From the NCBI GenBank assembly GCA_046482545.1, contig JAWOEX010000028.1, positions 128,001-192,000 on the forward strand: a stretch of DNA of 64,000 bases, read 5' to 3'. Of the stretch, positions 12,375-24,294 are shown piece after piece (position 1 is the stretch's first letter; every line of letters starts with the position of its first letter). The notes below the pieces were generated by a model. The model was given only the letters and a program-made list of their open reading frames with translations, searched no databases and was not told where the DNA came from. Both the position numbers and the translations under genes were made by a program. Source of the stretch: Candidatus Thorarchaeota archaeon (GTDB taxonomy: Archaea; Asgardarchaeota; Thorarchaeia; Thorarchaeales; Thorarchaeaceae).

Positions 12375-12875
12375 CTTCTGTTTATCTCCTTTCAAGATAA
12401 CCTGTTTCTTACAGTTTTAGGAACTGTGTGAAACTTCTGTGTTCCACCCTTCCCCTGCCAGCGTCGCCGCTCCCAAGGTACCCGTAGGCCTTGAGTCAGC
12501 AGGGGCTTTGTCCGTGTTCACTGGAATAGGATTCCTCCCTCGGTCCAGGCTTCTGTCTGCTGTCGTCATCCTGGGTCATCACTCCCGGCAACAGCGAGGT
12601 CTTCCACAGTTCTTGCCACGGCGTGGTCATGATCACCCACCTCAGCTTTGTCGCCGCCGCTGAGGAGGTCATTACAGACGAGGTGAACAGCCGCGGACGC
12701 CCCAGAGCTCGATGAATCTCCTGTATGGAGAGTGGGAACTTCTGTTTAGAAGAGCCTGTCTTCCTTGCAGCTTTCGGCCGCGTGCGTCACGCTACAGCGC
12801 TAGCCCACTTGCCTAGTCCTACTAGACCGGACTCCCGTACTAGGCCTAATGAACGCCCCCTGCTTGAAAGATAAT
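12375..12875 (-). ncRNA. Putative large structured non-coding RNA of unknown family (ends approximate)
   Basis: GC-rich intergenic island with many nested helices; C(UACG)G and GCGA/GAAA loops read correctly only on the minus strand; four ACAGAAG motifs; BRE/TATA-like GAAAAGTGTAAAATAT at about 12897-12912 on the minus strand. Confidence 0.7.
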
Positions 12876-13049
12876 CGTTACGGGAAATCTTACAGATATT
12901 TTACACTTTTCCACTCGGATTTTTTTAGGATTCTTGTAAAACTTATCCTTTCAAGAAATCAAAGCTATTAGGTATGCTCCAACCTATTCCCCAAGCTATA
13001 TATCCCGCTACGAAATGCTTGACGATACATATCGTTGCGGTGTAGAAAA

Positions 13050-14525
13050 ATGTCAAACAATCCAGATACCAAGAAAGTGGCTGCGTTTATTGTTGTTGTA
13101 CTTGTGATAGCTGGAGCTGCATTTAGTGTCATCATATTGATGGAACCAAGTGTGCAACCGGGTGGTCCAGAAGTTCAAATCGCCACAGCAGGTGAAACTT
13201 TGGCAATCACATTGAACGAAATCAAAGCAATGGAATCCCTAGAAGGATCTACATCATTTCAGAACACATACGGAAATGTAAGAGGACAGGGAAATTACAG
13301 TGGTGTCAAAGTTGCAGACTTAGTTGAGCTAGCTGGCGGTATGGAAAGTGATCAGATACTTACAGTTAATGCGACAGATGGATACAGCGTTACCTTCCCA
13401 TATTCCAAGGTCTTTCCAAATTCTACAGCTCGAACGATTCAGGGTGATATGATCCTTGCATACGAGTACAATGGAACCGAAGTTCCTGACTGGGAAGATG
13501 GCTACAGAATTGTGTTCCTCACTGATGACGGGTACTACTCCAACGAGGATGCTCAACAAACCACTCCGTCCGAATACTTTGCAGGAGCGGCGGGGCCAAC
13601 CTGCATCACAAATGTTGACACACTGAGAATTGAAACACCGGAACCGACAGCACTCAGTATCGCACGGGAAGAAGGAACTACTGAATTCACCATGAAGGAA
13701 TTGAAGCAGATGGATACCATAACCGGACTGGGAGGTTACAAGAGATCCTCAGGCTCTCTTGAGGGGCCGCACAACTACACGGCCGTAACAATGGAGACCA
13801 TTCTGAGTTCTACAGGAACATTGCCCGTCAACTATACCATAGAAGCAATGGGTAGCGACGGATATACTACCTACTACAACAGCACACAAGTTGAATCAGG
13901 TACTTTCCAAGGCTACGACCCTGACACAGGTGAAGATATTGGAACGATAGTCTGTAATCTCTCAATCGCTTACGCCGAAAACGGAGAGCCGCTTCCTTCA
14001 GACATAGGTCCACTACGCGTTGTCACCATCCACGAAGACGGCTATTTCACCGACGGTCACTTCTGGAATAAAGAAATCGTGCAGCTGACCGTGGTTGATG
14101 AAGTGCCAGATTGGCAAATCGAGCTGGATGGCGTGGAACATCTCAACATGACGCATGACGATTACTATGCCGGTGCTTCGTGTAGCCACCACACAACAGA
14201 AATAGAGATGAATGGCGACACCTTCAAGGGTTTGCCATTGTACGTCCTTGTCGCGGCTATGGATGGTGGTAATGATACCCACTACACATTCAATTCAAGC
14301 CTAGCTCTAGCAACCCATTACAATGTCACCCTCTATGATGGTGAAGGCAATAATGTCACTTTATGCATTGATCAGATTGCGGACAACACCAGCATTGTCG
14401 TGGCAGGCTGGAAGAACGGGCAGCTGCTTGAAGGAGATGAATGGCCTATCAAACTCGTCACGCCCAATGCTACGGCTGTACTTGACAGCATAACCAAGAT
14501 TGAAATGATTGGCTGGGATGAATAA
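13050..14525 (+). CDS. Membrane-anchored extracellular protein with three tandem molybdopterin-oxidoreductase-like domains
   Basis: N-terminal TM; repeated Y-x-G/A-V...A-x-DGY...LAY/IAY-x-x-NG...GPLR/WPIK blocks. Confidence 0.7.
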   Translation: MSNNPDTKKVAAFIVVVLVIAGAAFSVIILMEPSVQPGGPEVQIATAGETLAITLNEIKAMESLEGSTSFQNTYGNVRGQGNYSGVKVADLVELAGGMESDQILTVNATDGYSVTFPYSKVFPNSTARTIQGDMILAYEYNGTEVPDWEDGYRIVFLTDDGYYSNEDAQQTTPSEYFAGAAGPTCITNVDTLRIETPEPTALSIAREEGTTEFTMKELKQMDTITGLGGYKRSSGSLEGPHNYTAVTMETILSSTGTLPVNYTIEAMGSDGYTTYYNSTQVESGTFQGYDPDTGEDIGTIVCNLSIAYAENGEPLPSDIGPLRVVTIHEDGYFTDGHFWNKEIVQLTVVDEVPDWQIELDGVEHLNMTHDDYYAGASCSHHTTEIEMNGDTFKGLPLYVLVAAMDGGNDTHYTFNSSLALATHYNVTLYDGEGNNVTLCIDQIADNTSIVVAGWKNGQLLEGDEWPIKLVTPNATAVLDSITKIEMIGWDE

Positions 14526-14534
14526 GTCTCGATT

Positions 14535-14607
14535 AGGGGTATTCAAGGGGTTGAGGTAATTCTCGCTCCTCCCCCGAGACTGTAGTCCCCAATCAACACC
14601 CTTTTTT
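14535..14607 (+). terminator. Probable terminator: G/C-rich stem followed by a T7 run
   Basis: ggggttga...tcaacaccc followed by ttttttt (14601-14607) just after the stop at 14525. Confidence 0.4.
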
Positions 14608-14666
14608 GTGAACAATTACCGCTCTACACCAAACAGCGAAAGCCACGAGTCTTAGGAGCAAGATGA

Positions 14667-15275
14667 TTGATGACCGATAATACACCTCGGAGCCAGCAAA
14701 CGGGGAATTCCTTGGAAGAGGCAACGGCTTTAATCAACAGATCGAAGTATAGCGAGGCCGTAAATACACTCGAGAAGAGCCTTAAGGTCCAACCCAATAA
14801 TACAGAAGCATGGAAGACGCTGATAACCTGTCAGATTGAAATGAAGCAACCCCAGCAAGCCATTGATGCCCTGGAAAATCTACTGAGGATTGACCCAAGC
14901 GCGCAGCGAGCATGGGCAGATAAGGGGTATCTGCACCTTCTTCTCAATCAGCAATCAGAGAGCATAGAGTCTCTCAAGAAGAGCTTAGAATTGTCCCCGA
15001 GAAACTGGCGACACTGGCTGCTTCTAGCAGCGGCACATCTCTTGGATCATGAATGGAAAGAAGCCCTTTTGTCTCTTGAGAAGGTCCTGTTACTCAATCC
15101 AAGTCATGCTGAAGCATGGTACAACTGCGCTGTATGCCATTTGATGCTGGGAGACGAAGAAGCCGCAACAATAGCACTTGAGTATGCCACATCGCTAGAC
15201 CCGAATTTTGAAGACCTCATAGAAGAGTGGTCTGACGGAGAAGACGAAGTAGAGGACCTAGCAGAGGCGTCTTAG
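14667..15275 (+). CDS. Tetratricopeptide repeat (TPR) protein
   Basis: About four 34-aa repeats (P-x-N/S/H...AW...) and an acidic tail. Confidence 0.88.
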   Translation: MMTDNTPRSQQTGNSLEEATALINRSKYSEAVNTLEKSLKVQPNNTEAWKTLITCQIEMKQPQQAIDALENLLRIDPSAQRAWADKGYLHLLLNQQSESIESLKKSLELSPRNWRHWLLLAAAHLLDHEWKEALLSLEKVLLLNPSHAEAWYNCAVCHLMLGDEEAATIALEYATSLDPNFEDLIEEWSDGEDEVEDLAEAS

Positions 15276-15471
15276 AATGGCGGCATATTTACTACAGGAC
15301 TTCTGGCGTCAGGATATGTGGATTGGCAATTGTCTAGTTCACAATACAAGCTTAATTAAACGCAAGTACAGGAGATAAACCACAGAAGTAGGTGTACTAT
15401 TTCAGAATGTTGGGCATTTATTATACTAAATTGAAAGGAAATTAGTGTATTCGCGAAATAGACTTTAATAC

Positions 15472-18210
15472 ATGCTTGACAAGTCTGAACAAGACAACCA
15501 GGAGGCAGGCCCATTGGATACTCATGAATGGAGGCGAGAATTGGATAAACTCTCTGAAGCGAAGAGCACACTGGTGCACTTAAATCCCAAAGCTGATGAG
15601 AAACTGAAACGGCCAATGCGCCATTTGTACGACGTGTTCGCCAAGCTGAGTCAGACTGAAGAAGAAATCGAAGAAACCTCAGGCATAAACATTCTCAAGA
15701 AGAGGCGTTTGTCAGATCAAATTGAAAAGGTTTCTGGAGAGCTTAGAGAGGACTTCATGAGAGTTGTTAGAGATTTGGCCGACGAGGTGCGACAAGAATA
15801 CCATCAGACTACTCAGATGGCTCAGCGCCTCCAAAACATATCTCCGGCCAAAACCAAGTCAATAAAAGCACTTGAATTTCCTCCTGTTGGAGCTGGAGAC
15901 GTAAAAGATTTCCAGAGACTCTACAGTTTCCTCAAGGAATATTCTGAAAAATATACATCATTACATAGAGAAGTCGCAAGACAGGTAGGGGCATTACTTG
16001 ATGAAAATAAACGTACACTTGAGACCTATGAAAGACATATCACCATAGACCGGGGCGAAATCTCTGCAACAGTATCAATAGACAGCGTTGAAGGATTACA
16101 CATTGCAGATCTTGTCGAGGCAATGGAGAAACTCAAGGCTGAGAAGGCATACCTTGACGGACGGAAAGACGAAGTGAGCAGAATGCTCGCAGCCTCTCTT
16201 GTGTCTGAAGTTGAATCATTGCAGGCCTCAGTTGATACGGCATCTCGATTGGGATTGGAACTTCCAATTGACTACCCAAAGGAAATCAGAAGTATTGCCA
16301 GGGATGCCACACAAACGAACAATCTCACCTCCCTTGTGAGCTTGGAGAGTCAACTGCACTCTTCCAAACAAAAGATAGCGAACATGCTTAGAGACAAAAT
16401 CATCAATATCAAACATAGTGTGACCTCAAGGATTGTTGAAGGAGGCATACCTACCAGTTCGGATATTATTCCAGAAACTCCGACAGCGGTTCCTGAAGGT
16501 GATGACGTAGCTACTTTGCTTTCCGCCTATCAAAAAATGATTGAGTGGCAAGGGCAGGTCAAGATTGGGCTAAAAGATCGAATACAGGAAGTACTCGAGG
16601 AAATCGAGAAAGCAACTGAACGGCCTGAAGACGTAGGGATTAAGGATATCCTAACGGTCAGAGAATTTCTTGCGAATTCAAAGAAGAAGTTAGAGAAAGC
16701 CCAAATCGATGATATGATCAAGATATATCTGAAAGCTACCAACATGCAAGAGGAATATCGAAAAACAGTCACTGAGAAAATTCGAGAGTACTTGCAGCGT
16801 TTCAATGAACTTGCAACTTCAGCTGATAGAGTACTTGATTATGCACAACTCAGCAAGAAAGCACCAAAAGTGGATGAACTACAGGGTGGGTTGGTGTACT
16901 TGCTAAAGTCCCTAGACAACCTTCGGGATGCTGTTGAGAGTGGCGTGACTACATTTAGAGACGCAGCAAAGCAAGAACTCGAGGCCATTATCAACGACCT
17001 CCAAACTATCAAGCCAGAATATGCCGAGCTATTCCTTCCGATAATAGTTGACTTGGAAGATGGCGCTACGACAATAGAAGAACTTGATGAATTTGGTGCA
17101 ATTCGTTCTGAGATGCGAACAATCAAAGACAGTATTCTTGTGAAGGCCAAGGAGGCACTAGAAAATCTCAGGTATAGGCTTGGTGTCAAGATTCGTCTTG
17201 CTGCAGCTAAACTGATGGGTGCTGGAGTGACAATTCCGGGCGAGGTACAAGATTCAATCAGTGAACTGAACAATGTCGGTGTCGCAGCTGATTCTGTATT
17301 GAAATTGCCATCAAGAGCAAGAAAGATGATTGAAATCTATCAGAATGATATTTCCGGCGAAATTGTTGAGTTACTAGTCGACGAAGTCGATGAACTCATA
17401 GAATCATTTGACCAGGCTGCCAAGGTCGGCGTGCCGATGGATAAAGAGCTATCCAGATTGCGGAATATCAAACACAATCCCCCTCGGGAATTGGAAGCAG
17501 CAGCAGAGACATATGACGAACTGCGTACCCTAACCTCTTCAGAAGCACTTCAGAAGAAAATCCGCAGCAGGGCTGATCAGGCGTATGACCAGCTCAAAGA
17601 TGCAATCTCTATTTTCGAGCAGGAAGGGATGACTGATTTTGTACAGCGTTTGAATAATTTGCTGGATCAAGTCCCTGAAGAGATAGCAAGCGATGATACC
17701 GAAATCACTGAGACTCTTGATGTATGCCTTACTATGGCGAATATTCAAGAAGAGATGCTTGATGTGATTAAGAATATAGCAAACAAAAACCAAGAAACAT
17801 TACATGAAAATCTTTCAGAAGAGAGCAAGTACTACTCCACAATACGTCGAGTTTATGAAAGACATCCAAAAGAATTCAGCCAGAAAGTTTTCCCGCTTAG
17901 TCGCATGGAATCTCTTCAGGAGGAACTTCAGAATGCAGAAATGCTGGACACAGCAATAGCAAGATTCAACGAAATGAACGATCTCCAGACTAGGTGGGGG
18001 CAACAAGCGAAGAAAATGGATGATTGGCATAAATCACTGCGCATGTATATGTCAGGCTTTACCCCTGGGGCACCAGTTGATGACAGGAACAAGTTCATTG
18101 AGGACGCTAAGAGAGAAATCAAGGACAATTACAGCAAGGAAGACATAGTTTCTTATCTCTCTTGGGCGATGGACGTCATAGCTGACACAATGGTAAAGAA
18201 AAGAGAATGA
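15472..18210 (+). CDS. 912-aa all-alpha coiled-coil / helical-repeat protein
   Basis: E/K/L/R-rich amphipathic helices broken by Pro-containing linkers; recurring A-x-x-(L/V)G(L/V)x(L/I/M)P/D turns; no TM and no Walker motif. Confidence 0.85.
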   Translation: MLDKSEQDNQEAGPLDTHEWRRELDKLSEAKSTLVHLNPKADEKLKRPMRHLYDVFAKLSQTEEEIEETSGINILKKRRLSDQIEKVSGELREDFMRVVRDLADEVRQEYHQTTQMAQRLQNISPAKTKSIKALEFPPVGAGDVKDFQRLYSFLKEYSEKYTSLHREVARQVGALLDENKRTLETYERHITIDRGEISATVSIDSVEGLHIADLVEAMEKLKAEKAYLDGRKDEVSRMLAASLVSEVESLQASVDTASRLGLELPIDYPKEIRSIARDATQTNNLTSLVSLESQLHSSKQKIANMLRDKIINIKHSVTSRIVEGGIPTSSDIIPETPTAVPEGDDVATLLSAYQKMIEWQGQVKIGLKDRIQEVLEEIEKATERPEDVGIKDILTVREFLANSKKKLEKAQIDDMIKIYLKATNMQEEYRKTVTEKIREYLQRFNELATSADRVLDYAQLSKKAPKVDELQGGLVYLLKSLDNLRDAVESGVTTFRDAAKQELEAIINDLQTIKPEYAELFLPIIVDLEDGATTIEELDEFGAIRSEMRTIKDSILVKAKEALENLRYRLGVKIRLAAAKLMGAGVTIPGEVQDSISELNNVGVAADSVLKLPSRARKMIEIYQNDISGEIVELLVDEVDELIESFDQAAKVGVPMDKELSRLRNIKHNPPRELEAAAETYDELRTLTSSEALQKKIRSRADQAYDQLKDAISIFEQEGMTDFVQRLNNLLDQVPEEIASDDTEITETLDVCLTMANIQEEMLDVIKNIANKNQETLHENLSEESKYYSTIRRVYERHPKEFSQKVFPLSRMESLQEELQNAEMLDTAIARFNEMNDLQTRWGQQAKKMDDWHKSLRMYMSGFTPGAPVDDRNKFIEDAKREIKDNYSKEDIVSYLSWAMDVIADTMVKKRE

Positions 18211-18222
18211 ACAAGGAGGACA

Positions 18223-19614
18223 ATGACAATGCAAGGAATGGGATCACCAAGCTCTGAAGGCGATTCAGCGCGAGCTGCCGAGATATTTGCAATAGGAATA
18301 GGCGAATGCGGCTCAAATATCGTTGGTTCATACCTGCAATCAAGTAGAGACAAGAAGCTGCCCTCCAGAGTCAGAGGTTACATGCTCATCAACACAGATA
18401 GAGCAGACTTGACAAAAGTGCGGGATAAATACGGAATTCCCAAGGATCACACGCTCTTGTACGGAGCGAGCGAAATCGGTGTTGGTGGCAGATTCATGGA
18501 TGGTTATGAAGCTGTAATGAATTCGAAAGACATCATCTTCGATCAACTTGCCGGACTCGGCTTTGAAGGAGTCTCGGGATTTTGCATCTTTACCAGCCTT
18601 GGTGGGGGTACAGGATGTGGAGGTACCCCGGCGCTCATCAAACTCTTGAAGCAGAGATTCCAAGAAGAAGAAGGCAGGCGAATATTCGTCTATGTCATAG
18701 GAGTGCTTCCATTCGAAGGACAATCCAGCGAAGCTCTCAACTCGCTGTGGGGAATGTCCAAACTGCTTAGAGAACAGCTGCAAGAGCGTGGCGCTGATTT
18801 GACTATTCTTCTTAGCAATCGTACTATGCTGAAGCGAATCCTACAGTCGAGGAGAACAGACAGCGTAGACTACCTTCAGCGAGAACTTGAGATTGATATT
18901 GCCAACATAAATTCAATCGAGACAATGGTTCCTTCCACCCTAGAGTCCGCCGCTCCACAGGATGTAAGGACCGAACAAGCATTCGTAGAACTTGTCAATC
19001 CCATGGCGCTTGATGTAATTGATGCTATGCTTTCTCCCGGTGTTTACGAGCCTGAGAAAGATGTGTTTCCAACTACTGACTTGGCAGATTACAGTCGGCG
19101 TCTCGACCCTGTAGTAATACCTGCACTCTATCGGGACGCGGGCTTGATTCCTGATGCCGGTAACATGCAAAACCAACTCAAATCCATGGTGAATTATACG
19201 GCGACACAGCAATCATATGCTGATATAGGAGAGCAGCCAAATGCTGAATCGGTCTTCTATGTTTTCAAAGGGTCACGTCGAATCGCAAAAGCAGAGTATG
19301 GATCGTATCTTAAGGAGGCGTTGAGCCAGTTCACTGCACCAGGTGCGGCTATCACTCCATGCTATGTCAAATACGAAAATGAAACACCCACCGATCTATT
19401 GCTTCTTTTTGGCCTGCCTAAGATTCCCGAACTTGTCGAAATTGTCAAGGAAGCTACACAACTGGTAAATCTCCATAGCGGTAAATCGCCGCTCAAGCAG
19501 TCGTGGTTCAAGCGGTCAAAAGGTGTTGAACGGAGAGAATTGGTTAACGCCATCAACGACATTCGAGAGCTGTTCGGCTACTACGCTGATTTCCAAACCC
19601 AACCAACTGAATAG
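18223..19614 (+). CDS. Divergent tubulin/FtsZ-superfamily GTPase, tubulin-like
   Basis: EIFAIGIGECGSNI, INTD, GVGG, GFCIFTSLGGGTGCG signature, VLPF, T7-like TDLADY, tubulin H11'-H12-like C-terminus; AGGAGG RBS in a 12-bp gap after the upstream gene. Confidence 0.9.
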   Translation: MTMQGMGSPSSEGDSARAAEIFAIGIGECGSNIVGSYLQSSRDKKLPSRVRGYMLINTDRADLTKVRDKYGIPKDHTLLYGASEIGVGGRFMDGYEAVMNSKDIIFDQLAGLGFEGVSGFCIFTSLGGGTGCGGTPALIKLLKQRFQEEEGRRIFVYVIGVLPFEGQSSEALNSLWGMSKLLREQLQERGADLTILLSNRTMLKRILQSRRTDSVDYLQRELEIDIANINSIETMVPSTLESAAPQDVRTEQAFVELVNPMALDVIDAMLSPGVYEPEKDVFPTTDLADYSRRLDPVVIPALYRDAGLIPDAGNMQNQLKSMVNYTATQQSYADIGEQPNAESVFYVFKGSRRIAKAEYGSYLKEALSQFTAPGAAITPCYVKYENETPTDLLLLFGLPKIPELVEIVKEATQLVNLHSGKSPLKQSWFKRSKGVERRELVNAINDIRELFGYYADFQTQPTE

Positions 19615-19990
19615 ATAAGAAAGAGTGAATCACTCCTGCAATAGAGATATCCAATCTCCGGGAAATTTGCAGTCTCTAATCAGAAGGTCTGTGATGCACA
19701 CCTTCTGACTCAAACCTGACAATCACACTTACAAAGCACTTGGAGACATCAATGAACTTTCTTTCGATACACAATATGAAATCCAAGAACTTCAATTTCT
19801 TTGATTATCGTAAAATCTTCGAGTAACGCATCGATTCGTGGGATTAGAAATAAGTATTCATAGCCCATTTAAGAGGTCAGCAAAGTACCTATATGATAAC
19901 TGACCATGAGCTAGAAATCTTGATATTGATGCTCACATCCTGATGCATAGCCGCCAGTCAATCGAATGACTACTTTGGAGGAACCTTTGA

Positions 19991-21046
19991 GTGAGTGAAC
20001 CCCTACGAACAGATGAACTCGTCGAGAGATTGTTGGTTATCTCGACCCTGAACTCAACCCTCATACACTTCCTCCTCAGCTCGGAAATCGAGGGCAGAAT
20101 AGACCCCGACCGGGTCGACTCGTTAACGCAAGGTCTCAAGCGGACAAGAAAGTGGATGGAGAACGCTACAACCGCAAATGGTATTTCTGACTCGGAAGCA
20201 AACATTATGGGTCTCATCATAAAGCGGCTATCCCAAATTGAGAATCTTCTACCGAGACTGGCTGAACGCGAGAAGCTTGCAAGAATCAGAGGGAGACCTG
20301 CTACGGAAATCCTTTCTCTACTGGAAGGAGAAACCATGCGTGAGCCAGAGCGTGTTGCATCTCATGTTTCATCCACTTCGGATGCGATCCAAGTCACAGA
20401 TGAAATCCAGCCCCCAGAGGAAGAACCATACAGAAGAGTTGACATAGAAGATGACGAATGGGGGCTTATCGGTAGCACTCAACGTATGATTAACCAGTAC
20501 GCTAAGCGGTGCCACATTCTACTGCCTGCATTCTGGCTGGAAGTCCTGAAAGAACTCCATCGGTACAAATCAAATTCGCCATACATCGGCGATGTCATCG
20601 AAATACCGGCGAAAGTTATTGTACGAATCATACGGGGCTTGCTCACGGAGGCACCAGGAGCTAGACTGCTTCAAGACCTTCACAAGAAACGACCACCTGA
20701 AAAGGAGCTTATGCCAGAGGAGCTCGAACGAATTGAACGCGCAGTTGCGATATATTTCTCAGGGGTAGAACCCGTTCTGGTTGAAGAGGATGTTAATGTC
20801 AGGGAGAAAGTGCTTCAAGCCCAGACTACTTTTGATAGTTTTGATTGGGGCGGACCAGACCTAGAGAAGCGTATCATCAAGCGGCTTAATCAACGGTGTG
20901 AAGAAACACTCAGAAATGCAGAGACCGATACTGATGCTACAAGACAAATCATCTATGCTGAAACATCCAAGCTCCTCTGCAAACTTGAGCTCGCTCTCCT
21001 AGCTGAGCACAGATTCAGAGAAGTACTCGCTCAAATGAAACCATAA
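19991..21046 (+). CDS. Hypothetical alpha-helical protein
   Basis: 351-aa open frame with protein-like composition; no family recognised. Confidence 0.75.
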   Translation: MSEPLRTDELVERLLVISTLNSTLIHFLLSSEIEGRIDPDRVDSLTQGLKRTRKWMENATTANGISDSEANIMGLIIKRLSQIENLLPRLAEREKLARIRGRPATEILSLLEGETMREPERVASHVSSTSDAIQVTDEIQPPEEEPYRRVDIEDDEWGLIGSTQRMINQYAKRCHILLPAFWLEVLKELHRYKSNSPYIGDVIEIPAKVIVRIIRGLLTEAPGARLLQDLHKKRPPEKELMPEELERIERAVAIYFSGVEPVLVEEDVNVREKVLQAQTTFDSFDWGGPDLEKRIIKRLNQRCEETLRNAETDTDATRQIIYAETSKLLCKLELALLAEHRFREVLAQMKP

Positions 21047-21141
21047 AATGTCTGCATCATTCTTTTGGATATTAGGCCTCTATAGATAGCACCGAGCGTA
21101 ATTCCTCCCGTGACTGATTTGCACTCCACATCCGCCGGAAT

Positions 21142-22692
21142 TCATGGAAGAGGTGGCGTGATTTGTGTATCCTTCTCCCATTCAACCGAGTAGGTATAAT
21201 CGATGGCGGTCTTTTCCTCGGCAAGAATTTCAAACTCCCATTCTATGACACCTAGCTCAATGCTCTTGTACTCGCGATTGACATCTTCGAGTTCTACGCT
21301 GATTCGATCTGAGTCGCTGTGTGGAATACGATCGATGATTCGTACATTGATAGCTTCTTTGGCAAAGCTCTCGAGTTCCAACCGATAGGTGTACTCCCGT
21401 TGTTTCTTGCCTCTTGTTAATCCAGCCCGCTCAGTCTCTTTCTCAAGCATCTTTTTCTCACCCTGCACGTCATACGCTCCTCGGGTACCCAGATAGAATT
21501 CCTCCCGCGGAGCCACTGTCGAAATTGCAGTTTCACTTAGGAAGTCACCGTCAGAATAGACCTTCATCTTTCCAGGAATGATTAGCGAGTCACCATTGAT
21601 GATGCGATTCTGAATGACAAATTCATCCATAGCATATGCGTTCCAATAATAGACTTCTTCGCTGTCAAATTCCTCTTCGAGCAAGGTGACTGGATGCTGG
21701 TCCCTATCGGCAGGAATCGACACCTCTCCGGGAACTTGAAACACCATACCTCCGCTTGCAGTCTCAGAAACTCTTGCAGAGGTGGTCCTCATTTCTTCAA
21801 GGTTTCCGTACGATTTCTCCATATGCGCGATTACATCTTCAACTCTATCGAGAGGTCTTTCCGTATCCGATCGCCTGGTCTGGATGTAGAGGGGGTCAGC
21901 CTCGACTCTGCTTACAGGTTTGGCCGACGCAGTTGATACTGTCAGTTCTACTTCAGCCCAGTCTTCGAGGCTATGATTCCATACCAGAGCAAGTCTCTTC
22001 AAGGCGGTTTTATTGCTCATGAGGTCTATGTCATACTGAGGTAGCCATCGAGCTTCCCGAACTTGATATGTCACCTTGAAGTGAACGACGCATTCTTCTT
22101 CTACGTCCAAGCCTATTCTCACTTCTTTTGTCGATTCTATTTTTCGTTCTCCCTCGATTCGTTGTAAAGAAGATCTGACTGCGGCTATCTTGGCATCAAT
22201 CTCTTTCATTTTTGCCCTTGACTCTCGGAGACTTGCATGTGCTTCGGTACGCATAGCGGTGGTTTTCTCATCAATGGCTGCCATTGCACTGATTTCACTA
22301 TCACCAAATGCATATCGCTTCCCAAACTCTTCAGAGAAAGTATTTAGCATAATCTGTAGACGCTCTATCCGCCCCTCTTCGATGGCAATTTCTTCACTAA
22401 TGCCGTTTCTCTCATCTTCGAGCTTTCTTAGCTTGTTTCTGAGCGTCTCTGTATCACCTCCTGGCTGAAAGATTTCCTTGCGCGTATCTACCTTTATCCC
22501 ACGGATAGTTGCCTTCCCGGTCCCTTTCAGACGGAAGCTATCGTCTTCAGCAAAGTGTGTTATTCCACCTACTACGATTTCCTGCTTTCCTTGACTAAGT
22601 GATGCTTCTCCCATTCTTGTTATTCGGGCCCCATCTACAAATACCGTGACTCTCTCAACTGGTGCTTCTACAATCGTAGCCAAATCATTCAC
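21142..22692 (-). CDS. DUF4139/DUF4140 (MuiA-like) protein, paralog 2
   Basis: VERVTVFVDGARITR, central coiled coil, ARWLPQYDI, N-x-S-x-EDW...VSTA, IIDRIPHS. Confidence 0.88.
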   Translation of the reverse strand: MNDLATIVEAPVERVTVFVDGARITRMGEASLSQGKQEIVVGGITHFAEDDSFRLKGTGKATIRGIKVDTRKEIFQPGGDTETLRNKLRKLEDERNGISEEIAIEEGRIERLQIMLNTFSEEFGKRYAFGDSEISAMAAIDEKTTAMRTEAHASLRESRAKMKEIDAKIAAVRSSLQRIEGERKIESTKEVRIGLDVEEECVVHFKVTYQVREARWLPQYDIDLMSNKTALKRLALVWNHSLEDWAEVELTVSTASAKPVSRVEADPLYIQTRRSDTERPLDRVEDVIAHMEKSYGNLEEMRTTSARVSETASGGMVFQVPGEVSIPADRDQHPVTLLEEEFDSEEVYYWNAYAMDEFVIQNRIINGDSLIIPGKMKVYSDGDFLSETAISTVAPREEFYLGTRGAYDVQGEKKMLEKETERAGLTRGKKQREYTYRLELESFAKEAINVRIIDRIPHSDSDRISVELEDVNREYKSIELGVIEWEFEILAEEKTAIDYTYSVEWEKDTQITPPLP

Positions 22693-22695
22693 ATC

Positions 22696-24294
22696 CTAGG
22701 GCAGAGGAGGATAAACCGCTCTGCCTCGTTTCCACTCTATCACATACTCGTACTCAATGATGTGTTTCTCCTCACTTGGAATTTTTAGATGCCAAGTGAA
22801 TACTCCTAAGCGATGTTTGTCCGGATTAACCTTCTTAAGGTCAGTTTTAACTCTAAGGTCGGGTTCATTACTGTGGGGAATGCGATCTACCACTTCAATC
22901 TCGATAGTTCTCTTGGATAAGTTCTCTATCGTCAGCCGATACACGTATTCCCTTCTGAGCTTGCCTCTAGTCAGGCCAGCTTTCTCAATGTTTTTGTCTA
23001 TCAATTTCTTCTCAGCTTTGACGTGATGTGCGATCCGCGTCCCAAGAGTCCTCTTCTCGCGAGGTGAAGTGAAAGGTATGCTTGTTTCACCAACATATTC
23101 ACCATCGGCGTAGATTTTGGCCGTTCCGGCCATCAAGGCACTGTTTCCATTAACAACCTCATTCTCTGCTACAACTTCCATCATGCCATCTGGATACCAG
23201 TAGTATATGGTCTTTGAATCAAGCTTCTCAGTACTTAGGTCTACAGGTTTCTTCTCTCCCGCTTCTATAGTGACTGGAGAAGGAAGCTCATAGCGTGAGA
23301 TGCCACCTTCCACTTCTTGGAATTCAGCCTCCTCAATTGCCATTTCAGCTTCCGGAGGGGGAGCTGCAGCCTTCTTTGGTTCTGCTGCCGGCATTGCAGC
23401 CCTGACACCACCTCCACGTGCCGCCATTTTCTTCTTCGATGGCCTTGGAACAAATTCTCTCAGAATCAGGGGTCTTCCTTCTACCGCATCTACCGGCCTT
23501 GCTTTTGCACTCGAAACAACCAGATCAATATCCTGCCAGTCCTCACCAGTTTGGTTATGAACAACTGCAATCCTTCTGACTTCTGCTTCGGATTCAATTA
23601 GGTTGATATCGTAGTTTGGCTCCCAAGATGCAGAAGAGCACTGGTAAGAAACATTCAGCACAATATTAGTGGTCTCTTGTACATCAAGATTGACTCGTAC
23701 CTCATACGTGTTTTCGGTCAATTGTTCCGCCGACTTGTCAGCGATCTTATGCTTGAGAACCTGTATTTGGCTGATTACGTCCTTTCTTTTCTTTGACAAA
23801 TGATTGAGCTCTTCCTTAATGGCTCGAATCAATTTCAGAGACTCTGCCTCCATCTCAGTGAGTTTCTGGATTCCCACTTCTCCTCCGGCGAACGTACGGC
23901 CAAATGTATCATAAAAGTCACCAATAACAGCATTCACCACACTTAACCGGGCTTCGTTAATCTCGATTTGATCATCGATTTCATTCAGCTTTCTCTCAAG
24001 ACCTCGAAGCTCTTCTCTCAGAACAGATACATCTGCTTCAGGGGAGACAACTTTGGTTTGTTTAATCACCTCGAAATTGGAGATTGTTGCTGCCCCCGTT
24101 CCTGTTACTCGAAAACTGTCTCTTGACGCATCGATGGTTATACCCCGCATCCAAATCTCACGCGAGCCAGTCTCAAGTTTCGTACTGCCGGTTCTGGTTA
24201 CTATAGCACCATCTAACAGGACGCTGACCCTAGTAACCTCAGTCTTCAAGTCGGTCAAAATAATCTGCCTGTTGTTTTTAGACATAGGCGACAT
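22696..24294 (-). CDS. DUF4139/DUF4140 (MuiA-like) protein, paralog 1
   Basis: VTRVSVLLDGAIVTR, coiled coil, ASWEPNYDI, NQTGEDW, VVDRIPHS; same YPPLP/TPPLP C-terminus as paralog 2. Confidence 0.88.
   Translation of the reverse strand: MSPMSKNNRQIILTDLKTEVTRVSVLLDGAIVTRTGSTKLETGSREIWMRGITIDASRDSFRVTGTGAATISNFEVIKQTKVVSPEADVSVLREELRGLERKLNEIDDQIEINEARLSVVNAVIGDFYDTFGRTFAGGEVGIQKLTEMEAESLKLIRAIKEELNHLSKKRKDVISQIQVLKHKIADKSAEQLTENTYEVRVNLDVQETTNIVLNVSYQCSSASWEPNYDINLIESEAEVRRIAVVHNQTGEDWQDIDLVVSSAKARPVDAVEGRPLILREFVPRPSKKKMAARGGGVRAAMPAAEPKKAAAPPPEAEMAIEEAEFQEVEGGISRYELPSPVTIEAGEKKPVDLSTEKLDSKTIYYWYPDGMMEVVAENEVVNGNSALMAGTAKIYADGEYVGETSIPFTSPREKRTLGTRIAHHVKAEKKLIDKNIEKAGLTRGKLRREYVYRLTIENLSKRTIEIEVVDRIPHSNEPDLRVKTDLKKVNPDKHRLGVFTWHLKIPSEEKHIIEYEYVIEWKRGRAVYPPLP

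Follow-up and report, generated by a model that had tools for sequence, protein, structure and literature searches.

A conserved three-gene unit of Asgard archaea joining a repetitive helical rod protein to the tubulin-family GTPase Asg.Tub

Genomic analysis of a 64,000-nucleotide stretch from a Candidatus Thorarchaeota archaeon (contig JAWOEX010000028.1, positions 128,001 to 192,000; the whole stretch is called the window), together with 301 Asgard genomes, has identified three neighbouring genes encoding a long helical protein (the rod), a tubulin-family GTPase and a third conserved protein. That these genes are inherited as a unit is virtually certain. By its sequence the GTPase is a member of Asg.Tub, and structure prediction supports direct binding of the rod to it. 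On balance, the module is taken to form a filament with a side-binding rod spacer, probably from the membrane, and a third protein that regulates or adapts. The original prediction, made from the letters of the window, had proposed a two-gene operon; the linkage was borne out, while the unit was found to comprise three genes, the last of which had been overlooked.

Positions 15472-18210, plus strand: rod gene, longest open reading frame (ORF), 912 aa; rod residues are numbered on this ORF
Positions 18223-19614, plus strand: Asg.Tub GTPase gene, 463-aa ORF, on which GTPase residues are numbered
Positions 19991-21046, plus strand: third conserved gene, 351 aa

The sample covers 30 Asgard families and 90 high-quality genomes, Thorarchaeia dominating. 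The GTPase is present in 115, the rod in 119 and the third gene in 114 of the 301 genomes; the nine carrier families (of 30) are identical for the three genes, and each gene is found in 32 of the 90 high-quality genomes. Named carriers are Thorarchaeia, Hermodarchaeia, Sif/Borrarchaeum, Hodarchaeales, Baldrarchaeia and Ca. Asgardarchaeum, and the module was detected in 19 of 21 genomes of the Hodarchaeales-type family. No gene of the operon was found in 21 families of the sample, two of them large (68 and 28 genomes). Among 104 distinct GTPase loci, five end at a contig edge, leaving 99 assessable; the rod lies directly upstream in 95 of these, so that the synteny anticipated across Asgard genomes is present, and in the other four it is 0.5-5 kb away or in frameshifted pieces. 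One further locus carries a 10-kb insertion. Of 74 loci where it could be assessed, 71 have the third gene directly downstream; the second Hodarchaeales copy accounts for the remaining three. Unrooted trees of the rod and the GTPase show the same groups, by lineage, with a joint duplication of both genes in Hodarchaeales, and the operon is chromosomal in the closed genomes (L099, L106, L145). Synteny, matching distribution and congruent trees, together with a predicted contact that outscores its controls, agree with the dedicated pair originally proposed.

Several other arrangements have been observed at these loci. No fused rod-GTPase was found, which is weak evidence; a 1458-aa "open frame" spanning both genes in genome G097 was rejected as a fusion, a TAG lying between the genes. 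At L046:8081-8095 the rod and the GTPase share a reading frame, with one TAG and four codons between them, and other genomes do not suggest read-through. In two Hodarchaeales an unrelated large ORF is inserted between the rod and Asg.Tub (L148:5355-8963, minus strand; L146:13069-15390, plus strand); these ORFs, of 1202 and 773 aa, are 61% identical over the first ~750 aa and have no Pfam match. Next to the main Hodarchaeales copy (L047, L148, L151, L153) lie genes for a CinA-like protein, Cdc48 and an Arf-like GTPase. The second copy (L048), lacking the third gene, adjoins two small-GTPase-like genes, their P-loops having been judged by eye.

The GTPase matches PF00091 at 69.6 bits (cut-off 33) and contains the motifs (i) T1, GECGSN; (ii) T2, NTD; (iii) T4, GGGTGCG; (iv) T7, PTTDLAD. 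The GTP-binding loops and the T7 residues D286/D289 are invariant or nearly so across 98 family sequences, GGGTGCG being near-invariant. According to the published alignment (PMC9871819), D286/D289 correspond to the catalytic acids in T7 of alpha-tubulin, and residues 300-329 comprise the end of S7, the M-loop and H9, the latter two at 305-329. The Asg.Tub family was named in 2023 by Santana-Molina, del Saz-Navarro and Devos (PMC9871819), with OLS26264.1, PWI48967.1, KXH77455.1 and OLS30664.1. The present GTPase is 53% identical over 94% to OLS26264.1 (homologue P0088, included in the Asg.Tub alignment) and 77% identical to the AB_25 copy (L096), and its C-terminal blocks match the published multiple alignment of Asg.Tub. 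The rod homologue P0157 is KXH77454.1, one accession number below the Asg.Tub member KXH77455.1. In the published tree Halo.Tub is sister to Asg.Tub at support 62 and Asg.Tub falls outside the CetZ clade; its position is described as unstable between CetZ and tubulin (PMC9871819). The "CetZ-related Asgard clade" of bioRxiv 10.64898/2026.02.15.705738 is probably this same family.

Alignments of the family profile (455 positions) to CetZ and tubulin of solved structure are confined to positions 12-200. The best solved relative is Haloferax CetZ1 (PDB 4b46; E 3e-13, N-terminal domain only); similarity to full-length CetZ1 was not found, as only the N-terminal domain and a 0.9-bit fragment align. 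Two other identities are not supported: FtsZ, by a TIGR00065 score of 34 bits against a cut-off of 295 and by two stronger FtsZ-like genes elsewhere in the genome, and an AtubAB-type tubulin, by the single gene per operon and an AtubA match of E 2e-5 over 100 positions. The same genome carries SepF besides the two FtsZ-like genes, and one or two FtsZ-like genes are kept in 10 of 10 other operon carriers checked.

The rod has been characterized from its family alignment and an AlphaFold2 model (112 sequences), which is all helix with a mean predicted local distance difference test (pLDDT) of 85.8. The following elements have been distinguished:

Rod residues ~15-165: N-terminal helical bundle (AlphaFold2 model)
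Rod middle: successive small helical bundles; conserved Gly turns at 261, 325, 389, 585, 653 and 719
Rod residues ~786-911: conserved C-terminal domain, the most conserved region of the rod
Rod residues ~69-82 (positions 15676-15717, plus strand): tip of a hairpin, both basic and hydrophobic (family consensus G-F-x-K-K-R); putative membrane anchor
Rod residues 851-892 (positions 18022-18147, plus strand): predicted GTPase-binding surface, including the near-invariant W852

The claim of a soluble, nearly all-helical protein lacking an ATPase motif was upheld: no Walker A motif and no Pfam or NCBIfam match over cut-off were found in the rod, and the model is a string of small helical bundles with repeats, as the original prediction had expected. 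The repeat has a period of ~64/128 residues, built of long and short helices; the profile autocorrelation peaks at lag 128, ~3.2 standard deviations above the mean, and the Gly turns used for the ~64-residue spacing were picked post hoc. The repeated turns noticed earlier correspond to the 243/635 motif pair, the best ungapped 23-mer self-match of the rod (BLOSUM 42, 9 identities), a level reached by 1 of 60 shuffles. Self-comparison by hhalign gave 48% probability, compared with 0.6% for the reversed control. A profile of rod 230-352 finds a 13.6-bit copy at 627-737 of the same protein. In longer rods (1140-1405 aa) it detects extra tandem copies with round-0 scores of 14-31 bits, reversed controls staying at or below 7.5; only rounds 0-1 of this hidden Markov model were used, drift being seen by round 3 (reversed scores up to 15.8). 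Judged from sequence, the repeat is real, weak in a single protein and clearer at the family level. In Hodarchaeales the middle module is tandemly multiplied (1140-1405 aa) and both rod ends are retained. Two of the rod alignments each include one row from a non-rod 1202-aa ORF (L055), and counts have been adjusted. Rods of Baldrarchaeia and a related lineage (L040:860-3949, L057:4957-8028, L039) carry an extra, repeat-module-like insertion of ~150 aa after the N-terminal hairpin.

The hairpin tip is the most basic 10-residue window of the rod family, with at least three basic residues and a hydrophobic residue before the basic pair in 110 of 110 aligned rods; by analogy, it may have a membrane role. 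A second conserved basic patch (K573, R575) is located at residues 566-582 (window ~17167-17217) of the otherwise acidic rod.

A likeness of the rod to spectrin, EzrA and PRC1, suggested in the original prediction, was not sustained. No significant match was obtained: neither a Spectrin, EzrA or MAP65 Pfam match at E 0.01 over 43 alignment rows of the family, nor a spectrin, EzrA or PRC1 match among the sequences of the PDB, and the repeat unit of ~64/128 aa differs from the 99-122 aa of spectrin. Spectrin entries are absent from the top fold-search rows, an absence that does not exclude a likeness. Fold comparison, made on the modules as they stand in the rod model, gave Z 6.9, root-mean-square deviation 20.4 and 365 aligned residues for PRC1, and Z 6.5, 15.9 and 191 for EzrA. 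The fold-search rows fall on separate bundles (~15-165, 229-310, 361-437, 491-615, 690-766), none significantly. The best Foldseek candidate, a dynein tail (E 0.035, TM 0.12), supports no claim of homology, and the best VIA candidate (Z 11.7), a generic five-helix bundle, lies below the mark for helical proteins. Among 1.84 billion representatives no relatives outside the family were found; the 51 matches look like members or fragments, and all four of those checked lie just upstream of a tubulin-family gene.

The interaction with the GTPase anticipated by the original prediction has been predicted for GTPase 15-456 and rod 356-912. The complex scores 0.61, compared with 0.02 for the best of three controls; among solved complexes 58 of 80 pass the score mark, as do 2 of 110 mismatched pairs, a calibration that holds only approximately for the custom alignments used here. 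The runs share at least 65% of contacts, with partner pLDDT of at least 78. Since no relative of the rod has been solved, the prediction is unlikely to reproduce a known similar complex. GTPase residues 305-329 (M-loop and H9) and 208-211 are predicted to contact rod residues 851-892. Conservation at the rod side of this interface is 0.64, against 0.48 for residues 691-911. The model keeps the GTP and T7 (polymerisation) faces of the GTPase exposed, which would allow the rod to bind along a filament without acting as a cap. The M-loop/H9 face serves lateral assembly in tubulin and CetZ1. The predicted site covers this lateral-contact face, and a tether and an anti-bundling factor are equally compatible with it. 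In CetZ1 the M-loop matters for assembly, and an M-loop mutant leaves the envelope (10.1101/2024.04.08.588506).

The third protein is modelled (pLDDT 85.8) as an N-terminal three-helix bundle, a flexible linker and an all-helical C-terminal domain, and its residues D155, P179, P222, L226, G287, E292 and R294 are invariant. No Pfam match and nothing in Foldseek or Atlas were found for it; its fold-search rows, in which the C-terminal domain is barely covered, were set aside as generic three-helix bundles (Z up to 10.6).

The following mechanism is proposed. Asg.Tub very probably would polymerise head to tail with GTP and hydrolyse it via the T7 aspartates, as its motifs suggest. The C-terminal domain of the rod would probably bind the M-loop/H9 side, decorating the filament and limiting or organising lateral bundling. 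Rather tentatively, with somewhat less than an even chance, the bundles may form a length-variable spacer whose basic, hydrophobic N-terminal tip anchors to the membrane, in the manner of a non-homologous EzrA-type tether. The third protein may act as an accessory regulator or adaptor. The module more likely serves cell shape or the organisation of the envelope than division. A bolder version, put forward as a doubtful possibility, is an Asgard-specific membrane-anchored system whose rod, expandable by its repeats, would hold on to the M-loop face and set the distance to the membrane or the next filament, an independently evolved analogue of microtubule-associated spacers.

Several points weigh against this interpretation, beginning with its basis in sequence analysis and structure prediction and with the approximate calibration of the complex score. 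The Asn of the T7 NxDxxD/E motif is replaced by Thr in the GTPase. Conservation at the GTPase interface is 0.62 as compared with 0.69 for its domain, although D305, G313, Q318 and Y325 are conserved, unlike the interface as a whole. Covariation between the proteins for the predicted contacts falls short of significance, since 7% of random sets score as high at an effective number of sequences (Neff) of 15. With regard to the membrane tether, the rod has no transmembrane segment (maximum 19-residue hydropathy 1.25) and its membrane role depends on a single short motif; the predicted TM score (pTM) of 0.41 means that local folds are confident while the overall rod shape is not given by the model. 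Lastly, genomes of kin are not independent and Thorarchaeia are numerous in the sample, so the linkage is to be taken as a stable unit rather than as a statistical test.

Other explanations have been weighed against the filament with a side-binding spacer. An unlikely one is the cross-linker of the original prediction, in which a dimeric rod would hold two Asg.Tub filaments a fixed distance apart, as PRC1/MAP65 does. The single binding domain placed by the complex model at one end of a long rod is indeed the layout of PRC1, which also appears among the weak fold rows. However, a row of this kind is no more than common helical arrangements give, no rod member matches the MAP65 or spectrin Pfam model, and bridging would need a rod dimer or a second binding site, whereas one site is predicted. 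A Prc1-like gene is reported beside OdinTubulin (PMC9871819), but the rod profile has no match in the 1.3-1.4 Mb genomes of family f3, which are similar in size to those of Odinarchaeia. Improbable to a greater degree is a TubZRC-like segregation or positioning of DNA, moved by the filament via the third protein or the basic patches of the rod. It would account for the three-gene layout with a tubulin-like GTPase and for the conserved patches at 69-82 and 566-582; against it, all three proteins are net acidic, the operon is chromosomal in closed genomes, the trees group by lineage, and no tandem iteron-like repeat family was found in window 14400-21300.

Membrane remodelling or trafficking, with the rod as a BAR-like coat or tether and the GTPase driving membrane shaping, as has been proposed for the CetZ-like protein found in haloarchaeal Halo_adaptin ESCRT loci, is considered less probable still. 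Halo.Tub, the sister of Asg.Tub at the support given above, is tied to an ESCRT locus (PMC10936438), yet no ESCRT gene was found in the neighbourhoods examined; likewise, the matches of the N-terminal bundle to BAR proteins (arfaptin E 0.15; Z 7.4-7.8) are all below significance, and the Cdc48 and Arf-like genes near the Hodarchaeales copy are confined to that lineage. The lowest probability, a very slight one, is given to a rod that keeps Asg.Tub unpolymerised as a negative regulator or chaperone, or to a GTPase that is a non-polymerising switch. Such roles would fit the occupied lateral face, the replaced T7 Asn and the blocking of FtsZ bundling by EzrA (PMC4243239), but the longitudinal faces are free in the model and an expanding rod of 900-1400 aa is excessive for sequestration.

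As regards the locus itself, the two ORFs, their 12-bp gap and the AGGAGG within it are as originally described, and so is the AT-rich region upstream of the rod, with 35.7% GC as against 45.2% over the window. The remaining features are:

Positions 15276-15513, plus strand: AT-rich upstream region with TATA-like words and a Shine-Dalgarno (SD) AGGAGG, putative promoter
Positions 18214-18219, plus strand: SD AGGAGG for the GTPase, fitting ATG 18229
Positions 19615-19990, no strand: gap between the GTPase and the third gene, 376 bp

The upstream region is the probable promoter of the operon; its TATA-like words, at ~15415-15425 and 15463-15471 ahead of the rod, were picked by eye. Another SD, AGGAGG at 15500-15505, precedes TTG 15514. 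Translation of the rod probably starts at this TTG, giving 898 aa, because of the SD, the 895-898 aa of homologues, an Atlas record beginning at residue 15 and pLDDT below 50 for residues 1-13. For the GTPase, ATG 18229 is the more likely start, as it lies 9 nt after the SD and homologue P0001 has 461 aa. The 376-bp spacer is unusually long (-35 to +43 bp in other genera) and has no second genomic copy and no Rfam match; within the genus this spacing is loosened, being ~160 bp in G002 and 8 kb in G001. Close homologues are from named Thorarchaeota. Contigs of salt-lake RNA libraries cover all three genes, and one of 982 nt spans the rod-GTPase junction; as intergenic DNA is likewise covered, these contigs do not establish transcription or co-transcription of the operon.

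In the surroundings, two tandem DUF4140/DUF4139 genes (window 21142-24294, minus strand) converge on the operon, the same pair being present in G001 and G002. In many Thorarchaeia a divergent WD40 gene (~640 aa; e.g. L149:7576-9480) lies between a TPR gene and the rod; it is missing here (window 14667-15471), and tblastn found no copy in the genome (G000). The intergenic interval 12500-12930 of the window reaches ~90-500x contig depth in four RNA libraries, compared with ~1-16x elsewhere, partly from divergent contigs; with no tRNA or Rfam match, it may represent an abundant unknown RNA or a structural-RNA fragment.

For the operon and the rod the description as undescribed stands; the GTPase family was already known as Asg.Tub, its gene neighbours having been mentioned in general terms as unknown coiled-coil proteins (PMC9871819). 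The text of that paper gives four sequences and no operon, rod family, third gene, interaction or function. No paper on the operon, the rod family or the third-gene family, and no functional study of Asg.Tub, was found in the literature, subscription journals lying outside the search. The module occurs in 38% of sampled Asgard genomes and is thus far commoner than true tubulin, present in ~1% (10.64898/2026.02.15.705738). It may be the commoner non-FtsZ tubulin-family cytoskeleton of the Hodarchaeales lineage. Hodarchaeales have been proposed as the lineage nearest eukaryotes. To our knowledge, an accessory protein that binds the side of the filament is known for few prokaryotic members of the tubulin family, and as the predicted interface names residues, it can be tested in vitro without culture.

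Compared with known systems, TubZRC and PhuZ likewise have a tubulin-like GTPase with dedicated neighbours, whereas the Asg.Tub operon is chromosomal, with lineage-following trees and no centromere-like repeats seen. AtubAB, BtubAB(C) and OdinTubulin resemble it as Asgard tubulin-family operons, BtubC and the Odin neighbours being accessory helical proteins; in contrast to Asg.Tub, a single gene with a tubulin match of only E 1e-6, they are close to eukaryotic tubulin and mostly tandem A/B. In the rod model the bundles run head to tail with a period of ~64/128 aa, against units of the length given above in spectrin. EzrA-FtsZ provides the working analogy for the tether, as a linear string of three-helix bundles regulating a tubulin-family filament. 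EzrA has a transmembrane helix and five ~100-aa repeats and binds via its N-terminal repeats (PMC4243239); the rod differs in lacking such a helix, in its shorter or longer unit (~64/128 aa), in its predicted C-terminal site and in having no detectable homology. We know of no fixed partner operon for CetZ1. Like Asg.Tub, CetZ is an extra tubulin-family GTPase beside FtsZ; the M-loop of Asg.Tub, in contrast, is short and predicted to be bound by its partner.

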